This document shows, piece after piece, positions 1 to 53,440 of a stretch of 64,000 bases of DNA. The notes below the pieces were generated by a model, which made no database searches, was not told the origin of the DNA, and worked only from the letters and a program-made list of their open reading frames with translations. The stretch lies in NCBI RefSeq assembly GCF_058153355.1, contig NZ_CM177019.1; one strand, 5' to 3'. Each line of letters begins with the position of its first letter. Within the stretch, counting starts at the first letter, position 1. The translations under genes were made by a program, and so were the position numbers.

Positions 1-1301
1 GCTGTGGGGTATTTCCAGGGCCTCTCCTTTACCACTCTCGGGAAGGCCCTTTCCCTTCTTGTCGGTAATTTCACAAGTTGTCCCATACTTGCAAGATCGC
101 GCATCAGCTCCGGTATACGTCCCGGTGAAGCGCCCTGCAATGTCATCAGCATTCTCATCACCATTCCGCATGATTCTGAGAAACTCAGTTGATTCGGCCA
201 GTAACCTTTCAGATGTTCCGCCATTTTAATCATCTGATATCTCACCAGATTATAAGCCAGTAAGACACCCCACAGCTCTTGCTCCACAAGCTCCGGCTTT
301 TTACTTCTCAGCGTCAGCCTGCTCAGTTGCATCGTCTGTTTTATCTCCCTGTATCCCAGTTCGATTTCCCAGCGATGACTGTACAGATCCGCCATTTCTC
401 CTCCGGGGAAGCGCATGGCGTCCGTCATCGACGTCAGCAGATGGCAGACTTTTCCTTTGCGCGTCACGGTCAGCAGGCGGGCTGTCACTTCATTTCCCAG
501 TCCCGGCCACTTTTTTCGTGCCTGCGGGCTGGTTTTCAGCTTCACCAGATGATCGCCTTTACCCAGTTTTCTGATCTCTTCATATTGCGCTCCCTTTCTG
601 AGAGGTATCATCCAGTGGCGGTGTTCTCCCGCCAGGCTCCAGGCATTTAACAGTCCCAGTGAGTAATAACCTTTATCCATTAACGTCAGAGTGTTATCGC
701 CGGTTTGTTCTATAAGTTGCTCAGCAAGCTCATTTTCGCTGTTCTTCATCGTGCCGAAGGCTGCAGCCGTCAGCAGATGGCTGGTCAGTTCCATCTGGCA
801 GACCATTTTGACCTGCGGGTAGAGCGCCGGGTTCCCGGCATGTGTCTGGCGGGGGAAGGCTGCATCGTTCTCTGGTGTATCCGGTGTGCGCCAGAACACA
901 CCATCGATGGCCAGCAGGGTCAGGCCGCACCAGTGCGGATGCGGCGTGGCGTTATGCCAGAGCTGCGCTGTTTTCGTGAACACGCGGCGGACAGCCTCAC
1001 TTCCCAGGCGCTGGCGGGCCTGAATAACGGCACTGGGGGCAACGAAGGGGCGATTGCCCGGCAGCATGATGTCCAGGCGATTCACAATCTGGTGAAGAGG
1101 TTCTTTACGCTCAAGCGCCATGCCAACAATACACCAGACCATCATTTCGAGGGGAAGACGGCGCTTGCGTAGCGTTACAGTACCTGATTCGGCAAGGCAA
1201 CGAGAGATGAGTTCGGGGTCGAGGTAATCCCCCAGAGAAGTCAGTGGGTTACGCAGAGAATCGTAACGGGATACCAGATCAAGAGCCTGTCCAATGTGCA
1301 T
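1..1301 (-). CDS. IS4 transposase, last ~9 codons off the window edge
   Basis: Reverse-strand translation from ATG (complement of 1299-1301) gives [57 protein letters not shown]; frame stays open to position 1. Absent from the ORF track because it runs off the edge. Confidence 0.85.
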
Positions 1302-1385
1302 AAAAAAATCCGGAAACAAGTGAGCGTTTCCGGATTCTTACACAGCCACTGGATCGGTCAACTGATCCTTAACTGATCGGCATTA
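1..1385 (-). mobile_element. IS4 insertion sequence, partial (remainder lies before window start)
   Basis: Minus-strand terminus at 1341-1385 reads gtaatgccgatcagttaaggatcagttgacc, matching the IS4 end as recalled; interior is filled by the IS4 transposase reading frame. Confidence 0.8.
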
Positions 1386-2570
1386 CTTCGCCTGTTGCGC
1401 ATTGACCCGAAAAAACTGGCGGCGGATATGCAGAAAGACGCCCGTGGGGCCATGCTGCACGTACTGGATTCTCTGGCGAAAGTGCCGAAAGAAAAACAGG
1501 CTGCTGTGCTGAAAGCGCTGTTCGGGAAGGAATCCCTGGGGGCCATTGCGCCGCTGCTCACGAATCTGGATTTGTTGCGAACCAACTTTAATCGTGTGGC
1601 GGATGCGCAGCAGTATGGCGGCTCAATGCAGAAAGAATATGCCGCCCGTGCCGCGACGACAGAAAATCAGTTGTTGCTGCTGCAGAACCAGATCAATGCG
1701 ATTTCTTCCACGCTGGGGGAAACCTTCCTGCCTTCAATCAATGAAGGCATAAAAGAGATGAAGCCTTTTCTGGAAGAAGTGCGCACGTTTGTCAGAGAAA
1801 ATCCTGAGGTCGTAAAAACCATCGCGAAAACTGGTGCGGCATTACTGACGATGGGCGTGGCGATTGGCACATTGACACGCATAACAAAAATCATGGGTAG
1901 CGTGATGAATATGACGCCGGCAAAGGGATTAATAGCGCTTCTCGTCGGTGGTGCATATCTCATAATTGATAACTGGGAAACCGTTGGACCGGTTATTAAA
2001 AATGTCTGGGAAGTCATTGATGGCACCGCCCGGGCTATGGGGGGATGGGAAACGATCCTTAAAGCTATCGCCATTTTTATGGCGACAAAGTGGGTCACCG
2101 ATGTCACTAAATCAATCAGCATTGTGACGAAGGATATGCGCACACTCGGCAAGGTCACTGCCGCTACCGGATTGTTTGGTAAAGGCGGGGGCGTTATCGG
2201 AAAAGCCGGTGTATATGGGATGCTGGCTTCTATGATGTGGGAGCCCGTCGAAAATGCACTTGAATCAATTCTGCCTGAGGGCGATGTTAACTGGGCCAGG
2301 GATCATGGCATATATCTGGCCTCTGACTGGACCCCGTTTTTTAATCGAAAAAATTATGAGGAATACCAGGCATCCCTTAATCAGCCGCGTCAGTACAAAC
2401 CGAATGTTCCTTTGCTTAATCCGGCGATATCGTCTGTGGCAGCACGTGGTGAAATCAAAGTCACGTTTGACAATGCGCCACAGGGAATGCGCGTTATCGA
2501 TTTGCCGAAAACAGGCGATCCCTTTATGAAAATCACCCATGACGTTGGGTATTCACCTTTCAGGCGTTAA
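1386..2570 (+). pseudogene. Phage tail tape measure protein, C-terminal fragment; 5' end cut by IS4
   Basis: Frame is open from the IS4 boundary (the track ORF at 1395 starts on TTG); Gly/Ala-rich hydrophobic C-terminal region; sits directly upstream of a Mu gp43-like gene. Confidence 0.55.
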
Positions 2571-2585
2571 TAATGAGGTATCAGA

Positions 2586-3977
2586 ATGGATTTTCCTTCC
2601 TTACCTTCTTTGCCCTCTTTGTTTTCTTCATCTTCCGGAACGACCTGGCGCGATAATCTTTACGACGCTTCATTTCGTGGCGTTCCGTTTTCGGTGGAGA
2701 GCGACGAGGGTTCGTTCGGACGCCGCGTTCAGGTCCATGAATACCCAAACCGTGATAAACCGTACACGGAAGATCTCGGGCGTGCCACGCGACGGCTGAC
2801 GATTAATGCGTATCTCGTTGGTGATGATTACGCAGAGCAGCGCGACAGGCTGATTACCGCGATTGAAACCGCCGGGCCGGGGACACTGATCCATCCGCAG
2901 TTCGGTGAAATGCAGGGCTGTATTGACGGACAGGTGACCGTTTCTCACTCCGGCACTGAAGGCCGTATGTGCCGGGTTTCATTTCAGTTTGTTGAGAGCG
3001 GGGAACTGTCATTTCCGGTCGCCGGAGCCGCAACTGCCAGAAAACTGGAGGCGTCGTCCGGATTCCTGGATGAGCTGATTGAAGACATGTCCGGTGATTT
3101 TGAGCTCGCGGGAATACCGGACTTTATTCAGAACGATGTTATTGCCCGGGCAACCGATATGCTGGGAACCGTTCAGACAGCTTTCAAAATGGTTAATTCT
3201 GCGGTTTGTGCCGGAATGAGACTGATGCAGGGTGATTTATCTGTCATTCTGATGCCGCCGTCGGTTGCCAGTGATTTTGTGCATACGTTGCAGGATACCT
3301 GGCGGGCCGGAACCCGGCTGGTGGATAACACACAGGATCTGGTGCAGTCCATAACGACAATGTCCGGCATTACGCTGGATCCAGGACTGGCACCGCGTGC
3401 GGTGTGGCCCACAGATTCCGCATCGGTTATCAGGCAAAAACAGCAGACAAACCTTGTGGCTGCTGTCATCCGGACGACGGCAATCAGCGAAGCCACAAGG
3501 GCGGTCACTTCACTGCCACAACCCGGAAGCCTGGTGAAAAATCAGCAGGCGGTTGTGGCTGTTGGTGGTTCCACTGAACGTCAGTCCGATATTATTCACG
3601 TTTCTCATCCGGCACTTGACAGCGTGGCAGCCAGCACAGGACAGGATGAGAGAGCGCAACCACCCACGCGGGAAAATCTCACCATCATACGCGAATCGCT
3701 GAACGCGGCGATTGAACAGGAGCTCAGGCGTACGGCGGATGACAGGCTGTTTTTTCAGCTGACGTCATTACGTACAGAACTGAACCGGGATATTCAGGCG
3801 CGTCTGGTTCAGACGGAGGAAACCGCAGAGCGAACGCCAGCGGAAGTTCTGCCTGCGCTTGTTCTGGCTGCGTCATGGTACGACGATGCGTCCCGTGAAA
3901 CTGATATCCTGGATCGAAATGCCATCTCTCATCCGGGCTTTGTTCCGGTCAGGGCATTAAGGGTACCCGTCAGATGA
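2586..3977 (+). CDS. Phage DNA circulation protein (Mu gp43/N-like)
   Basis: 463 aa; N-terminal region TWRDNLYDASFRGVPFSVES...VQVHEYPNRDKPYTEDLGRATRRL resembles the DNA circularisation family; position after tape measure. Confidence 0.65.
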   Translation: MDFPSLPSLPSLFSSSSGTTWRDNLYDASFRGVPFSVESDEGSFGRRVQVHEYPNRDKPYTEDLGRATRRLTINAYLVGDDYAEQRDRLITAIETAGPGTLIHPQFGEMQGCIDGQVTVSHSGTEGRMCRVSFQFVESGELSFPVAGAATARKLEASSGFLDELIEDMSGDFELAGIPDFIQNDVIARATDMLGTVQTAFKMVNSAVCAGMRLMQGDLSVILMPPSVASDFVHTLQDTWRAGTRLVDNTQDLVQSITTMSGITLDPGLAPRAVWPTDSASVIRQKQQTNLVAAVIRTTAISEATRAVTSLPQPGSLVKNQQAVVAVGGSTERQSDIIHVSHPALDSVAASTGQDERAQPPTRENLTIIRESLNAAIEQELRRTADDRLFFQLTSLRTELNRDIQARLVQTEETAERTPAEVLPALVLAASWYDDASRETDILDRNAISHPGFVPVRALRVPVR

Positions 3978-5029
3978 ATAATACCGTTTTACTTCGGGTT
4001 TCCGGTCGCGAATGGGGCGGCTGGACATCCGTCCGTATCAGTGCGGGCATTAACCGTATTGCCCGGGATTTTAATGTTGCCATTACCACCCGCTGGCCCG
4101 GAAGCCGGGATTATCAACCCCGGATAAAAAATGGTGAGCTGGTTGAAGTGCTTATCGGGGATGAGCCTGTGCTCACCGGATATGTGGAGGCACTACCGCT
4201 TCGTTATGACGCCAGCAGCGTCAGCATGGGAATTGTCGGGCGAAGCAAAACAGCCGATCTGGTTGACTGCTCTGCTTTGCCACTCCAGCAGAGCGGAAAA
4301 AACCTGCTCAGAATAGTCAGTGAACTGGCTGCGCCATTTGGCATCACCGTTGTTGATGCTGGCGTGCCGCAGACAGCGGTGATTGATGCCCAGCCGGAAC
4401 ACGGCGAAACCGTTGCCGATTGTCTTAACCGGTTACTGGGGCAGGTTCAGACGCTGGCTTATGACGATGAATGCGGGCGACTGGTTCTGGGAAAACCCGG
4501 AACAGGTAAAGCGGCGACGGCGCTGGTGCTGGGAGAGAATATTCTTTCCTGTGACACGGAAAGAAGCATCAGAGAGCGGTTTTCTGAATATCAGGTCAGT
4601 GGGCAGCGCCCGGGCAACGACGATGATTTTGGTGAGGCCACCATTGCCGCAATACGTCAGACCATTCAGGACAGTGGCGTGACCCGTTATCGCCCTTTGT
4701 TGATTCAGCAGTCAGGCACAGCAACGACAGCAACCTGTAAGGCCCGTTGTGAATTTGAAGCGCGCCAACGGGCTGCGCTTACCCGTGAGACAACATATAC
4801 GGTTCAGGGCTGGCGGCAGGGCAGTGGCGCGTTATGGCGTCCGGGGTTATCTGTCATCGTTTTCGACCCGCTGAATAATTTTGATCATGATGAACTGGTG
4901 ATCGCAGAAGTTACCTATAACCATGATGACCGGGGCACGACGACTGAATTACGGGTTGGCCCGGCAGATGCTTATCTCCCCGAGCCTGTTACCGCCAGGA
5001 AGAAAAAAAATGTTGAGGAGGATTTCTGA
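3974..5029 (+). CDS. Baseplate hub protein (Mu gp44/P-like)
   Basis: 351 aa; start overlaps the upstream stop; position in a Mu-like tail module. Confidence 0.6.
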   Translation: MNNTVLLRVSGREWGGWTSVRISAGINRIARDFNVAITTRWPGSRDYQPRIKNGELVEVLIGDEPVLTGYVEALPLRYDASSVSMGIVGRSKTADLVDCSALPLQQSGKNLLRIVSELAAPFGITVVDAGVPQTAVIDAQPEHGETVADCLNRLLGQVQTLAYDDECGRLVLGKPGTGKAATALVLGENILSCDTERSIRERFSEYQVSGQRPGNDDDFGEATIAAIRQTIQDSGVTRYRPLLIQQSGTATTATCKARCEFEARQRAALTRETTYTVQGWRQGSGALWRPGLSVIVFDPLNNFDHDELVIAEVTYNHDDRGTTTELRVGPADAYLPEPVTARKKKNVEEDF

Positions 5030-8838: not shown

Positions 8839-8983
8839 CAATGTTGCATTTAAAAAATATTACTGCGGGTAATCCGAAAACAGCAGAACAATATCAGATG
8901 ACAAAACGATATTCGGTCACCTGGCTTTTTTCAGAAGACGGAAAAAACTGGTATGAAGAGCTGAAGAATTTCGCCAGCGACAC

Positions 8984-8991
8984 AATTAAAA
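8984..8991. repeat. Target-site duplication AATTAAAA, left copy
   Basis: 8-bp direct repeat immediately flanking the IS66-family element. Confidence 0.8.
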
Positions 8992-9021
8992 GTAAGCGGC
9001 TCGCCAGAACCGTATTGATAT

Positions 9022-10593
9022 TTACTGAGAGCTCAGATCAACTTTCCAGGGCAACAGATCGCGTACCCGGTTTGCCGGCCAGTCCTGGATATGTTCAATG
9101 ACGTAACGCAGCCACTTTTCTGGCTCCACATTGTTCAGACGGCATGTGCCGATCAGCGAGTACAACACCGCAGCATGTTCACCACCGCTGTCAGAACCCG
9201 CGAAGAGCCAGTTTTTCCGGCCTACGGCCACTCCCCGTAAGGCGTTCTCTGCGATGTTGTTGTCGATTTCCACCCAGCCATTACTGCAGTACACGTTCAG
9301 TGCATCCCACTGTTTCAGCAGGTATGCGAACGCTTTTGCCGTGTCCGAGTGACGCGACAGTGTTTTCATCTGTTGCTGTATCCAGTCATACAGTGACTGC
9401 ATCAGTGGCGCGGCTCTGGCTTTTCTTGCCGCCAGACGCTGTTCTGCTGAACAGCCCCGGACCTCTGCCTCGATGGCATACAGTTCACCGATACGCTGCA
9501 GGGCTTCCGTGGTGATGTCGGTGGGCACTCTTGCATGCACATCGTGGATTTTTCTCCGGGCATGAGCCATACATGCGGCTTCCGTTATTCTGCCGGATTC
9601 GTACAACGCCCGGTAACCACCGTAAGCATCGGCCTGAAGCACTCCGCTGTAACCGGCCAGATGATTCTGTGGATGGATACCTTTCCGGTCCGGGCTGTAC
9701 GCGAACCAGACCGCCGGAGGCATTTCCGAACCGGCGTTACGGTCATCACGAACGTAGACCCACAGCCGGGCAGTCCTTGTTTTACCGCTGCCCGGCTCCT
9801 GGACCGGAACGGGGATATCATCGGCATGGACTTTACCGGGCATCAGCACATACTGGCGCAGGATGTCATACAGCGGTTCCAGCAGTTCAGCAACAGCACC
9901 TGTCCAGCGCCCCAGTGTGGCACGGCTCAGCTCCACGCCCTGACGACGGTATATTTCTGACTGGCGGTATAACGGCAGATGGTCTGCATATTTTCCAGCG
10001 ACAACATGGGCCAGAAGCCCCGCTCCGGCATAACTGCGTGCAATGGGTTTTGAAGGCACCGGAGCCTGCACGATATGGTCGCACCGGCAACAGGCCAGTT
10101 TCGGACGTTGTGTTTCGATAACCTTAAAGGCGCTGCTGATAAGCTCCAGTTGCTCTGACACATCACATCCCAGAGAACTGAGTTCGCCACCACAGGCCGG
10201 GCAGCATTCCTCTTCCGGACGGATGACCCGGGTTTCACGGGGAAGTGAGGCAGGTAACGGTTTACGGGCTGAAGACTGGCGCAGGGGAGATGGCAGTACC
10301 GGGTCATATTGCTCACCCAGCGTTTCCGCCATTTCTTCCTGAAGAGCGCTGATTCGCTCCTGTGCTTCCTGTATCTGCCGTTCGGTTTTTGCACGAAGTT
10401 TTTCTGAGCTTTTACCGAACTGCATGCGCTGCAGTTTTGCAACCAGCGCCTTCAGCCGGTTGATTTCGGAAGCATAAGCCGCCACCCGCTGTGAGAGCAG
10501 GCGGTTGTATTTCGCCATCTGGCGGATGGTGTCCTGTTGCGTCTGCAACAGTGCCCGCAGGCGGGCATTCTCATGAGCAAGTGAGGTGTCCAT
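9022..10593 (-). CDS. IS66-family transposase TnpC
   Basis: 523 aa; coiled-coil N-terminus, Cys-rich zinc-finger motif CPACGG...CCRCDH, DDE-type core. Confidence 0.85.
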
Positions 10594-10612
10594 ATCCTCA
10601 CTTTACAACGGG

Positions 10613-10960
10613 TTATATGCGGATGCCAGCGCGTTCCGTTCGTTTCGGGTGTTTCCAGTCGATGCCCTCAAGAAGCATGGATAACTGGGCCGGAGTAAGG
10701 TGCACCTTGCCGTCACGGGTGACCGGCCAGACGAAGCGGCCCCGCTCCAGGCGTCTGGTGAAGAGGCACAGTCCGTCACTGTCAGCCCACAACACTTTTA
10801 TCTGGTCACCCCGGCGTCCGCGGAAGATGAACAGATGCCCGGAGAACGGGTCATCCTTCAGGACGTTCTGAACTTTTGAGGCCAGGCCGTTAAAGCCATT
10901 TCGCATATCGGTGATACCTGCAACCAGCCAGATACGCGAACCTGCAGGGAGAGATATCAC
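10613..10960 (-). CDS. IS66-family accessory protein TnpB (Orf2)
   Basis: 115 aa; typical size and position; ATGA overlap with upstream orfA. Confidence 0.8.
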   Translation of the reverse strand: MISLPAGSRIWLVAGITDMRNGFNGLASKVQNVLKDDPFSGHLFIFRGRRGDQIKVLWADSDGLCLFTRRLERGRFVWPVTRDGKVHLTPAQLSMLLEGIDWKHPKRTERAGIRI

Positions 10961-11385
10961 CGTCTCAGCTCCTGTATAAGCAAGGACAGCAGATTTTCAT
11001 TCACTGCCCCGTTCAACCGAAGGGTGCCGTTTCTGAACGTAATCTCACAGGAGATGCTGTGTATTTCCGGTGTTACTGACGGTCTTGCGGTCAGTGGCTC
11101 ATTAGCCGGAGCAGTTGGGAGTTGGGCATCAATAGTGACAGGAATTAACTGAGATTCTCTGCCTGATTCTGATGATGGCAATTTTATCTTCCCCTGCCGC
11201 CATTTCTGACGCCATTTGAACAACAGATTGGCATTAATACCATTGTCCAGGGCCAGTCTGGAAATTGAAACACCTGGCTGGAATGATGCTTCTATGAGTC
11301 GTTGTTTGAATTCAGGAGGATAATTCAGGCACCCTTTAGGCCTTCCCGGAGAGGCATTTTTTTGTATATCTGACATTTTTATCAC
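10957..11385 (-). CDS. IS66-family accessory protein TnpA (Orf1)
   Basis: 142 aa; first gene of the IS66 operon. Confidence 0.75.
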   Translation of the reverse strand: MIKMSDIQKNASPGRPKGCLNYPPEFKQRLIEASFQPGVSISRLALDNGINANLLFKWRQKWRQGKIKLPSSESGRESQLIPVTIDAQLPTAPANEPLTARPSVTPEIHSISCEITFRNGTLRLNGAVNENLLSLLIQELRR

Positions 11386-11460
11386 CCACTATTAATTTAG
11401 TGGTGGATACTTTGTCCAAAGCATCGGGAATTTGCCAGACGGTCCTGATAAGACGCTTAC

Positions 11461-24852: not shown

Positions 24853-26046
24853 TTAGAACTGGTAGACTAAGCCCACAGCAACGATATCATCGGTAGCGAT
24901 GCCGTTTGCTTCGTAGAAGTCATCATCGTTGTCCAGCAGGTTAATTTTGTAATCAACATAGGTGGACATATTTTTGTTGAAGTAGTAGGTCGCACCGACT
25001 TCAACGTATTTAACCAGATCTTTGTTAGTGTAACGCGGGTCGCCGTTGCCGTCATGAGCCCAGCCGCCTAAATCCTTACCTTTAGATTGCAAGTAAGCGA
25101 TGGACGGGCGCAGACCGAAGTCGAACTGATACTGAGCAACAACTTCAAAGTTTTGGGTTTTGTTAGCGATGGCTGATCTTGAATCACCATTAGCAAACTC
25201 GCCACCACCATATGGGGTCATATTGCGAGTTTCAGCGTACATAGCTGCTAAATACACATTATTAGCATCATATTTTGCACCAACAGTCCATGCTTCAGCG
25301 GTTTCACCACCAGCATTTCTGTTGCTATGGTTACGATCATTTAAACCAACTCCAACCTGATGATCTGAACGATCAGAGTTTGAATATGCAGCACCCAGAT
25401 TTAAACCGAAGTCGAAGTCGTAGGATGTAGACATACCGAAACCATCACCATTTTCTTTGGAAAGGCTACGGCCATCACCACTACCGGAACCTTCCTGCCC
25501 GAATGGTCCACCACTTTCATTATTACCCTGATATTGTAAAGCAAAGTTCAAGCCATCAACCTGACCAAAGAAGCCATTATTACGGTAGGTTGCAACACCG
25601 TTGGTACGACCGTTCATGTAGTTGTCGGCACCCGCGTAGGTATCGCCACCAAATTCTGGCAGCATATCGGTCCATGCTTCGATGTCATATACGACACCGT
25701 AGTTACGACCATAATCGAAAGTACCATTCTGACCAAAACCTAAACCTGCGAATGCCAGACGGGTAGCTGAGTTATCTCCATCGCCTTCTGTGCCATTTGC
25801 TTGAAGGTTGTATTCCCACTGACCATAGCCAGTGAACTGGTCAGCGATTTGTGTTTCGCCTTTGAAACCGATACGGGCATATGACATATCGCCATCAGCG
25901 CCCGAGTTGTCAGAGAAGTAGTGCAGACCTACTACTTTTCCGTATAAATCCAGTTTATTGCCATCTTTATTATAAATTTCAGCCGCATTTGCTGCGCCAG
26001 CAACTAATAACGCCGGGACCAGCATTGCCAGAACTTTTCTTTTCAT
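24853..26046 (-). CDS. yedS: OmpC-family outer-membrane porin, apparently intact
   Basis: Start at [21 protein letters not shown] gives 397 aa; C-terminal VGLVYQF; synteny between hchA and yedR. Confidence 0.75.
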
Positions 26047-26674
26047 TATGTATTCCCTTGTGATTATAATCTTCATGAATATAACAATAAGTGCCGTTAT
26101 CCAAAAAAAAGCACATTTGGATACTATTCTATGAAGTTCATTTTATTTTAAGGATTACATGTAACAAATGTATTTAAAAGATTGCAAAATGTTTCTAATC
26201 TATTTAATATAATTCATGCAAATGAATTATGAATATAACCATTCATGATGGTTATGGATGTATATCAATGAGTTATGAATTTTATGGAAAGATAGGGAGT
26301 GTCAATGATTTTTGCGCCAGACGGCCTATGTGATCGCGCGCACATTAATGAAGGCATAAAAAAAGCCGGCATCATGCCGGCCCAAAAAATATAAACAAGA
26401 CGATAAAAGGCTAATAACGGGGTTATCATGACACAGAAATCTAAAAAGGTATAATTGTATTCAGTGCTAATGTATTGTTTGGGTGAATTAATAAAACCAT
26501 TATCCAAGATAAAAATAAATCTTTATTGCTGTTTTTCCGGTAATTATTGCCGTTGCGCAAAAACTATCTATTTGCTCAAAAAATGATTGAGTCTTGACTG
26601 ACTCATCCAATGTGGAAAAATGTGACTTTTATCACATAATAGTACTAAGTCTGAATTTTCCAGGTTATCTCAAA

Positions 26675-50090: not shown

Positions 50091-51173
50091 TTAGAACTGG
50101 TAAACCAATCCTACAGCAACGATATCATCGGTAGCAACGCCAGATGCTTTCGTGAAATCGCTCTTATCAATCAGGTTGATTTTGTAATCAACAAAAGTGG
50201 ACATATTTTTGTTGAAGTAATAGGTTGCACCTACATCAATATATTCAACCAGGTCCTGATCACCCCACGCACCCAAGTCTTTTCCTTTAGATTGCAGGTA
50301 AGCAACGGACGGACGCAGACCGAAGTCGAACTGATATTGTGCAACTACTTCGAAGTTTTGTGCTTTGTTGGCAATATGGTTATTACCAAAAACAGTCATG
50401 TTCTGGGTTTCAGAATAGGTGGTAGCCAGATAGATGTTGTTCGCATCATATTTCAGACCAGCTGCCCATACTTCAGCATTTTGACCAGATGCATTCAGGC
50501 TGTTGTTACCGTAGATAACCTGATCATTAGTGCGGTCAGATTTAGCATAGGTTGCACCTACACCGAATCCTTCATACTCATAAGTAGTGGAGAAACCGAA
50601 ACCATCACCGTTAGCTTCAGTTACGTCAGTGCGGTCATTTTTACCCTGATACTGAGCAGCAAAGTTCAGACCATCAACCAGACCAAAGAAGTCGTTGTTA
50701 CGATAAGTTGCAACACCTGTGGTGCGACCAGTCATGAACACATCTGTTTGGGTCCAGGTATCGCCACCGAATTCTGGCAGAACGTCGGTCCATGCACCGA
50801 TATCGTATGCTACACCGTAGTTACGGCCATAATCGATGGAGCCGTAGTCACCGAATTTCAGGCCAGCGAAGGCAAGACGGGTTTTATCTTTGGAAGAACC
50901 TTGAGATTCAGCACGGTTGCCTTTGAATTCATATTCCCACTGACCGAAACCAGTCAGTTGATCGTTGATTTGGGTTTCGCCTTTGAAGCCCAGACGAACA
51001 TAAGTTGTGTCGCCATCATCTGCATCGTTAGAAGAGAAGTAGTGCTTAGCATTAACTTTTCCGTACAGATCCAGCTTGTTACTGTCTTTATTGTAAATCT
51101 CTGCTGCCTGAGCAGACATCGCCATCAGTACTGATGCAGCTACAGCAGAAATTGCCACTGTTAATTTTTTCAT
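50091..51173 (-). CDS. OmpC/NmpC-family outer-membrane porin (prophage-type)
   Basis: 360 aa; signal peptide [24 protein letters not shown]-terminal VGLVYQF; several downstream hairpins. Confidence 0.8.
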
Positions 51174-52177: not shown

Positions 52178-53440
52178 TTGGCCTGTGAAACGACTACAAG
52201 CATTTAAATTCCAGTTAAGACCAGGTGGTCAACAGGAGCGTGAAATGAGGCGCTTCGCAGGCGCATGTCGTTTCGTTTTCAATCGTGCTCTGGCACGTCA
52301 GAATGAGAATCATGAGGCCGGTAATAAATACATCCCTTACGGGAAAATGGCTTCCTGGCTGGTTGAGTGGAAAAATGCCACTGAAACGCAATGGCTTAAA
52401 GATTCGCCCTCACAGCCATTGCAACAGTCACTGAAAGACCTTGAGCGGGCTTACAAAAACTTCTTCCAGAAGCGGGCTGCTTTTCCCCGATTCAAAAAGC
52501 GGGGACAGAATGATGCATTCCGCTACCCGCAGGGCGTTAAGCTCGATCAGGAAAACAGCCGTATTTTTCTGCCGAAACTGGGCTGGATGCGCTACCGGAA
52601 CAGCCGTCAGGTCACGGGTGTTGTGAAAAATGTCACGGTCAGCCAGTCCTGCGGTAAGTGGTACATCAGTATTCAGACAGAAAGTGAAGTATCCACTCCG
52701 GTTCATCCTTCAGCATCAATGGTCGGGCTGGATGCTGGCGTGGCTAAACTCGCCACGCTGTCAGATGGCACAGTCTTTGAGCCTGTAAACAGTTTTCAGA
52801 AAAACCAGAAGACGCTGGCGAGACTTCAGCGACAGTTAAGCCGCAAGGTCAAATTCAGCAACAACTGGCAGAAGCAGAAACGCAAAATACAGCGACTGCA
52901 TTCCCGTATCGCAAATATCCGCAGGGACTACCTTCACAAAGTCACAACGACCGTCAGCAAAAACCACGCAATGATAGTCATTGAGGATTTGAAGGTCAGC
53001 AACATGTCAAAGTCAGCAGCGGGTACGGTCAGCCAGCCGGGGCGCAATGTCCGGGCAAAATCAGGTTTAAACCGTTCGATACTGGATCAGGGCTGGTATG
53101 AAATGCGCCGCCAGCTTGAGCACAAGCAGCTCTGGAGTGGCGGTCAGGTGCTTGCTGTTCCGCCAGCGTACACAAGCCAGCGTTGCGCGTGCTGTGGTCA
53201 TACAGCGAAAGAAAACCGCCTGTCACAAAGTAAATTCAGATGCCAGGTATGTGGATATACAGCGAACGCCGATGTAAATGGCGCTCGTAACATTTTAGCG
53301 GCGGGGCACGCCGTTCTTGCCTGTGGAGAGATGGTGCAGTCAGGCCGCCCGTTGAAGCAGGAACCCACCGAAATGATTCAGGCGACAGCCTGAACGTAGC
53401 AGGGATCCACGTCCTTCAGGGCGTGGAGGATGTCAACAAA
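51660..53440 (+). mobile_element. IS200/IS605-family element (divergent tnpA and tnpB); boundaries approximate
   Basis: Matching subterminal hairpins ccccgtccttcagggcgggg (51704-51723) and ccacgtccttcagggcgtgg (53407-53426); Y1-type tnpA plus tnpB. Confidence 0.7.
52185..53393 (+). CDS. TnpB (IS605 OrfB-family RuvC-like nuclease)
   Basis: 402 aa; C-terminal zinc finger CACCGH...[18 protein letters not shown]; full length. Confidence 0.85.

Follow-up and report, generated by a model that had tools for sequence, protein, structure and literature searches.

A simple IS4 insertion very probably split the tail tape-measure gene of a phiP27-like prophage that carries an intact ipaH gene

At the left edge of the stretch of DNA analysed here (64 kb, termed the window throughout), the reading frame of a phage tail tape-measure gene comes directly out of one end of an IS4 element, and the locus raises the question of how the gene came to lie there without its beginning. 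It may have been interrupted by a simple insertion, it may have lost its 5' half to a deletion or rearrangement, or it may be a complete gene that is naturally short. We suggest, with high confidence, that an IS4 copy moved by its transposase InsG inserted in codon 244 of the gene, duplicating 12 bp and splitting the reading frame in two, with loss of tails and retention of the ipaH cargo. The features on either side of the boundary are the following.

1..1385, minus strand (orientation given by the transposase): IS4 copy, 1385 of 1426 bp, 100% identical to the copy of E. coli FCI1
3..1301, minus strand: insG, the transposase gene of IS4, of which 433 codons from the ATG at 1301 are visible, recognised by Pfam
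1368..1385, no strand: 18-bp terminal inverted repeat of IS4 at the transposase-start end, reading ...CTTAACTGATCGGCATTA, read directly
1386..1397, no strand: right-hand copy of the target-site duplication, 12 bp, CTTCGCCTGTTG, established from the window and sister contigs
1386..2570, plus strand: 3' part of the gene for the tail tape measure (codons 244-637 of 637, with the stop), established by alignment and profiles

The identity of the element is plain. In megablast searches, 1385 of the 1385 bases at 1..1385 are those of the IS4 copy of E. coli FCI1, the best match; matches covering at least 80% of this interval occur in 2,485 of 5,426 complete E. coli genomes, with at least 99% identity in 1,803 records, and many other IS4 copies reach 99.9%. 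The complete element in the best-match record (L021) spans 160..1585, 1426 bp from TAATGCC... to ...GGCATTA, and the first base of the window corresponds to base 42 of IS4, which places the 41 bp of the far end beyond the left edge of the window. What is seen is hence 1385 of about 1426 bp of an element cut by the window edge, with no sign of internal deletion. The insG frame runs through all 433 visible codons without a stop, as the sequence-only reading had claimed, and its final 9 codons and stop codon lie to the left of the window; RefSeq places the start at a TTG at 1319 and not at the ATG at 1301. The visible product is identical to residues 7-439 of WP_000483766.1 (translated from L021), and contains the Pfam domains PF13006 Nterm_IS4 (2.9e-33) and PF01609 DDE_Tnp_1 (8.4e-32) together with a Y(2)R(3)E(6)K (YREK) motif at residue 307. 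A single open reading frame with no frameshift and with the YREK motif, as is typical of the IS4 DDE transposase, is thus present over these 433 codons.

The ends of the element agree with this assignment, which rests on near-identity to the reference and on terminal inverted repeats of about 18 bp. The near-end repeat, TAATGCCGATCAGTTAAG (the reverse complement of 1368..1385), matches the far end, TAATGCCAGTCAGTTAAG, at 16 of 18 positions, the far end lying outside the window and being known from sister contigs and other IS4 copies. Two variants of the far-end repeat exist, TAATGCCGATCA and TAATGCCAGTCA, of which TAATGCCAGTCA is the commoner in E. coli copies. Elements of the IS4 subgroup have ends of the form -AATR... 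and duplicate 10-13 bp of their target (PMC2266710, Table 1). Compared with IS4 of E. coli (insG), the type element of the IS4 family, the copy described here has the same bases, transposase domains, YREK motif and terminal repeat, and its 12-bp duplication falls inside the range of the subgroup; its location alone differs. No further IS4 copy, and no repeat of any kind longer than 200 bp, was found in a search of the 64-kb window. We also note an inverted repeat, AATCCGGAAAC-(8 nt)-GTTTCCGGATT, at 1304..1340, between the end of IS4 and the insG start codon, which is present in every IS4 copy.

The boundary with the phage DNA is equally sharp. IS4 ends exactly at 1385, as had been claimed from the letters, and every match to prophage DNA, whether in E. 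coli genomes or in Logan/NCBI contigs, starts at 1386; with 1385 of 1385 identical bases on one side and so sharp a breakpoint, a chance origin of this boundary is excluded. To its right, 1386..2570 corresponds to residues 244-637 and the stop codon of an intact 637-aa protein (L002 4835..6748), with one substitution. The alignment to full-length tape-measure proteins that the sequence-only reading had proposed therefore leaves a 3' piece of 394 codons, with codons 1-243 absent from the window. The frame has no stop from 1377 on, the last one being a TGA at 1374-1376 within IS4, which bears out the claim that the gene lacks its 5' part and is open up to the junction.

We considered whether this reading frame, taken from 1395 or 1428 to 2570, might be a shorter gene that is complete and has its own start, either a naturally short tape measure or one half of a two-part protein. 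Its first in-frame ATG is at 1428, from which gene callers predict a 380-aa product in sister contigs, and PHROGs holds an N-terminal tape-measure family (phrog_14441) separate from a C-terminal one (phrog_17727). Close relatives at 96-99.9% DNA identity, however, encode one continuous protein of 637 aa (650 aa in phiP27), and the 3' fragment is open to the end of the insertion sequence, lacks the native start, and has neither a start codon nor a ribosome-binding site of its own. The profile matches tell the same story. The TIGR01760 (NCBIfam) match reaches 138.6 bits (cut-off 28.8) yet is confined to profile positions 201-348 of 349, and that of PF10145 (PhageMin_Tail) is confined to positions 160-201 of 201 and stays below its cut-off. 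As PF10145 spans residues 88-290 of the intact tape measure, the insertion falls inside this conserved domain. In PHROGs the fragment is a 'tail length tape measure protein' (4e-109), with matches to PHROG 17727 and PHROG 28, but phrog_17727 begins about 40 profile positions before the IS4 junction, which is a different break point. A complete short gene is thus very improbable, and alignment to the 637-aa homologues excludes the outcome that the sequence-only reading had named as one that would overturn it, a downstream gene complete from its own start.

The surroundings of the fragment point in the same direction. An intact tape-measure gene would lie between a tail assembly chaperone gene and the baseplate genes; here the downstream neighbours are as expected, and the upstream neighbour is IS4 and not the chaperone gene. 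A promoter and terminator scan of 1..2700 returned promoter-like sites at chance level (2, with 2.6 expected); the one within the IS4 end faces the transposase, and no outward-facing promoter that would drive the 3' fragment was found in that interval. Judged from its sequence, 1386..2570 is a pseudogene fragment of the tape-measure family and not a functional member of it. As an observation on the family itself, the N-terminal phrog_14441 (241 positions) and the C-terminal phrog_17727 (443 positions) indicate that split annotations exist in other phage or prophage genomes; in a scan of 1386..2567 and of L002 4835..6745, the PHROGs break point lies some 25-40 residues upstream of the IS4 junction.

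Where, then, is the 5' half? A search across the 64-kb window for it and for the upstream tail genes found none. The insertion sequence could accordingly mark a rearrangement or deletion, for example through recombination between IS4 copies, in which case the 5' half and the genes upstream of it would be lost or no longer adjacent. In addition to the absence of any upstream tail gene from the window, this explanation can draw on the position of the left end of IS4 beyond the window edge, and on the many IS4 copies and frequent rearrangements of Shigella genomes (PMC7373316; bioRxiv 10.1101/2020.06.12.147751). What decides the matter is the left junction, and because the window starts 41 bp inside IS4, this junction was read from sister short-read assemblies.

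Exact look-up of the DNA-circularisation protein of the window gave no match in contigs longer than 20 kb. The sister contigs were located instead by exact look-up of the tail assembly protein that is encoded just upstream of the tape measure in intact relatives, and two of those recovered stop shortly after tape-measure codon 243 (L018 and L019). The first (L018, from SRR8656992) ends ...CAGAAAAAAGCG CTTCGCCTGTTG TAATGCCAGTCAGTTAAGCAACTGACTG. The second (L019, from GCA_043012465.1) ends inside the same 12-mer, and its partner contig (L005) begins inside it. A look-up of the 247-aa 5' product led to the same left junction in SRR31441161 (L028). In L018, in a further contig of SRR8656992 (L027) and in L028, the sequence reads AGCG, then CTTCGCCTGTTG, then TAATGCCAGTC, the last being the IS4 far end; the 28 bases that follow the 12-mer are those of the far end in the variant found in most E. 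coli IS4 copies. The right junction, which in the window reads GGCATTA, then CTTCGCCTGTTG, then CGCATTG, was likewise recovered from separate read sets (L007 and L008), at 99.99-100% identity to the window over about 7 kb. Of these, L008, also from SRR31441161, opens with 26 bp from the near end of IS4, followed by CTTCGCCTGTTGCGC..., and shows no difference from the window across 6,978 bp (100% identity). Both junctions, each with the 12-bp CTTCGCCTGTTG, are hence present in the single sample SRR31441161, whereas intact relatives have this 12-mer once.

The target duplication is therefore 12 bp, with its right copy in the window and its left copy in the clonal relatives (L018, L027 and L028), and the other IS4 end and a duplication of 11-13 bp, which the sequence-only reading had proposed to look for, are both in evidence in those relatives. 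The same 12-bp duplication at both junctions is what a simple cut-and-paste insertion leaves, and a matching duplication is the signature of such an insertion with no later recombination. In sister genomes whose tail module is identical to that of the window, the 5' part has not been deleted: these assemblies have the 5' half, the IS4 far end and the matching duplication, which makes a rearrangement quite unlikely. From these clonal relatives we infer an identical left junction for the genome of the window, in which the 243 missing codons would most likely be found immediately past the left window edge. The sequence-only reading, in which IS4 truncates the tape-measure gene, is supported with one refinement: the sister assemblies indicate a simple insertion that splits the gene without deletion. 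'Split' is the more accurate word than 'truncated'.

The multi-copy nature of IS4 also invites the suspicion that the junction is an assembly artefact, with an IS4 copy misplaced during repeat resolution, and the IS4/tape-measure junction is indeed found in no complete E. coli RefSeq genome, where no match covers at least 80% of 1..4000. Nevertheless, at least two further read sets (L007 and L008) independently gave the right junction (26-28 bp of IS4 joined to the tape measure), and two gave the complementary left junction, so that an artefact is the least credible of the explanations considered here.

We posit, then, that InsG-driven cut-and-paste placed the 1426-bp IS4 into codon 244 of a 637-codon tape-measure gene and duplicated 12 bp of target, CTTCGCCTGTTG. 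The left flank in the genome of the window would be expected to read ...TCGCAGAAAAAAGCG, then CTTCGCCTGTTG, then the 41 bp of IS4, TAATGCC(AG/GA)TCAGTTAAGCAACTGACTGGCTCTTTTTCGGG. The 5' piece would comprise the 243 native codons followed by LRLL, encoded by the left copy of the duplication and repeating residues 244-247, for a product of residues 1-247 that would end at the TAA with which the element opens (its first three bases). The remaining 394 codons, with no start or ribosome-binding site, would make up the 3' piece.

The same 12 bp bear on where IS4 inserts. A target rule of the form AAA-N20-TTT is given for it in the older literature. In each of four other IS4 sites (L021, L023, L024 and L026) a quasi-palindrome stands between an A-run and a T-run, and most of these sites resemble terminator hairpins; their duplications, in our own reading, are 11, 11, 12 and 14 bp. 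The tape-measure site, AAAGCGC-N10-GCGCATT, has loosely the same symmetry. A reading of IS4 targets in terms of site symmetry may be given moderate weight on the basis of these five sites, and strong specificity in the target arms is known for some elements of the IS4 subgroup (PMC2266710).

The interrupted gene belongs to a tail module that is otherwise easily recognised. Collinearity with the tail modules of phiP27-like prophages, at 96-99.9% DNA identity, extends from 1386 to about 8365, in the order tape measure, DNA-circularisation, baseplate hub, gp45-, gp46-, gp47- and gp48-like genes and tail fibre, and the first intact gene downstream of the tape measure is the following.

2586..3977, plus strand: DNA-circularisation gene (Mu gp43-like), Pfam PF07157

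The baseplate genes that follow it reach 7643. The module is collinear with a prophage of STEC379 and with L48-L53 of phiP27, the Stx2e phage that is the closest sequenced phage (96.7% over the tail module). The prophage is phiP27-like, with HK97-type head genes and Mu-type contractile tail genes; a scan for a tRNA serving as attachment site found none. In phiP27 itself L47 (P27p47) is annotated as a tail length tape measure of 650 aa, and other close relatives have 637 aa, with intact examples at L001 5272..7185, at L002 4835..6748 and in STEC379 (WP_112015833.1). Relative to phiP27 L47 and the STEC379 protein, the gene order here is the same, and the difference is that only codons 244-637 are present, with no start.

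This module has been hit more than once. A second, independent insertion in it had been claimed in the earlier reading, and the claim is borne out by an IS66-family element with an 8-bp duplication, AATTAAAA.

8992..11460, minus strand: IS66-family element (tnpA, tnpB, tnpC), delimited by the gap in collinearity with L001 and by NCBIfam
9022..10593, minus strand: IS66 tnpC, NCBIfam IS66 transposase, 479 bits
10957..11385, minus strand: IS66 tnpA, NCBIfam IS66 TnpA

The element has the ends GTAAGCG...CGCTTAC and is flanked by the two copies of its duplication at 8984-8991 and 11461-11468. It splits a tail-fibre assembly gene (start at 8841) after about 50 codons; over those 50 N-terminal codons the product matches its L001 counterpart.

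The tape measure sets the length of the phage tail and primes, or nucleates, polymerisation of the tail tube. With this protein split, the prophage would be unable to build tails, and the IS66-family insertion in the tail-fibre assembly gene would disable the tail module a second time. Tail function has presumably been lost, infectious particles are very likely no longer produced, and selection would now act on the cargo only. It could be argued that the two halves (residues 1-247 and the 380-aa product from the ATG at 1428), or the C-terminal fragment alone, still function, given the separate N- and C-terminal tape-measure families of PHROGs; yet the fragment has no start signal, no promoter and no conservation argument in its favour, and the IS66-family element breaks the module as well, so that a working split protein seems most improbable.

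Decay of the phage contrasts with the state of its cargo, a gene found at the prophage's distal end, next to zinT.

14053..15696, minus strand: ipaH, intact, encoding a type III secretion effector and E3 ubiquitin ligase, NCBIfam NF046045 IpaH_Shig
18084..18767, minus strand: zinT, ZinT equivalog match

The ipaH match to NF046045 scores 563 bits (cut-off 550), and past ipaH the order is zinT, msrP, dgcQ and the fli region. An ipaH gene at a prophage end next to zinT indicates the chromosome of Shigella or of an enteroinvasive E. coli. Both IS insertions hit phage structural genes, and the ipaH cargo is intact. Chromosomal ipaH genes are reported to be surrounded by prophages or prophage remnants and by pseudogenes (PMC9046306), a picture that the locus fits exactly. 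IS4 is one of five insertion sequences that have expanded in all Shigella species, and it is present in enteroinvasive E. coli too (PMC7373316); and the insertion described here is the same in kind as the IS-driven pseudogenisation reported for these organisms (Hawkey et al. 2020, PMC7373316). A fully known element is seen in a fully known role, and the case is one of ordinary gene decay with no new kind of element; what sets it apart from the known decay is one particular insertion site, common to a few sequenced isolates.

Several practical consequences follow. The open reading frame at 1386..2570 should be annotated as the 3' part of a tape-measure pseudogene interrupted by IS4, and the prophage as a defective one whose tail module has been hit by two insertion sequences independently and which retains ipaH. 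The insertion site can be used as a lineage marker in IS-based typing of the clone, of Shigella or enteroinvasive E. coli, in which it occurs. The locus adds a further case in which insertion sequences erode a prophage but leave a virulence gene untouched.

The remainder of the window offers a few minor observations. The fliF, fliI and fliC reading frames that were checked match their family profiles from end to end, and the window has two genes for porins of the OmpC family, at 24853..26076 and 50091..51173, both on the minus strand. Among chromosomal genes near yedE and amyA, a 402-aa reading frame at 52185..53393 (plus strand) matches the TnpB RNA-guided endonuclease of elements of the IS200/IS605 type (NF040570, 383 bits).
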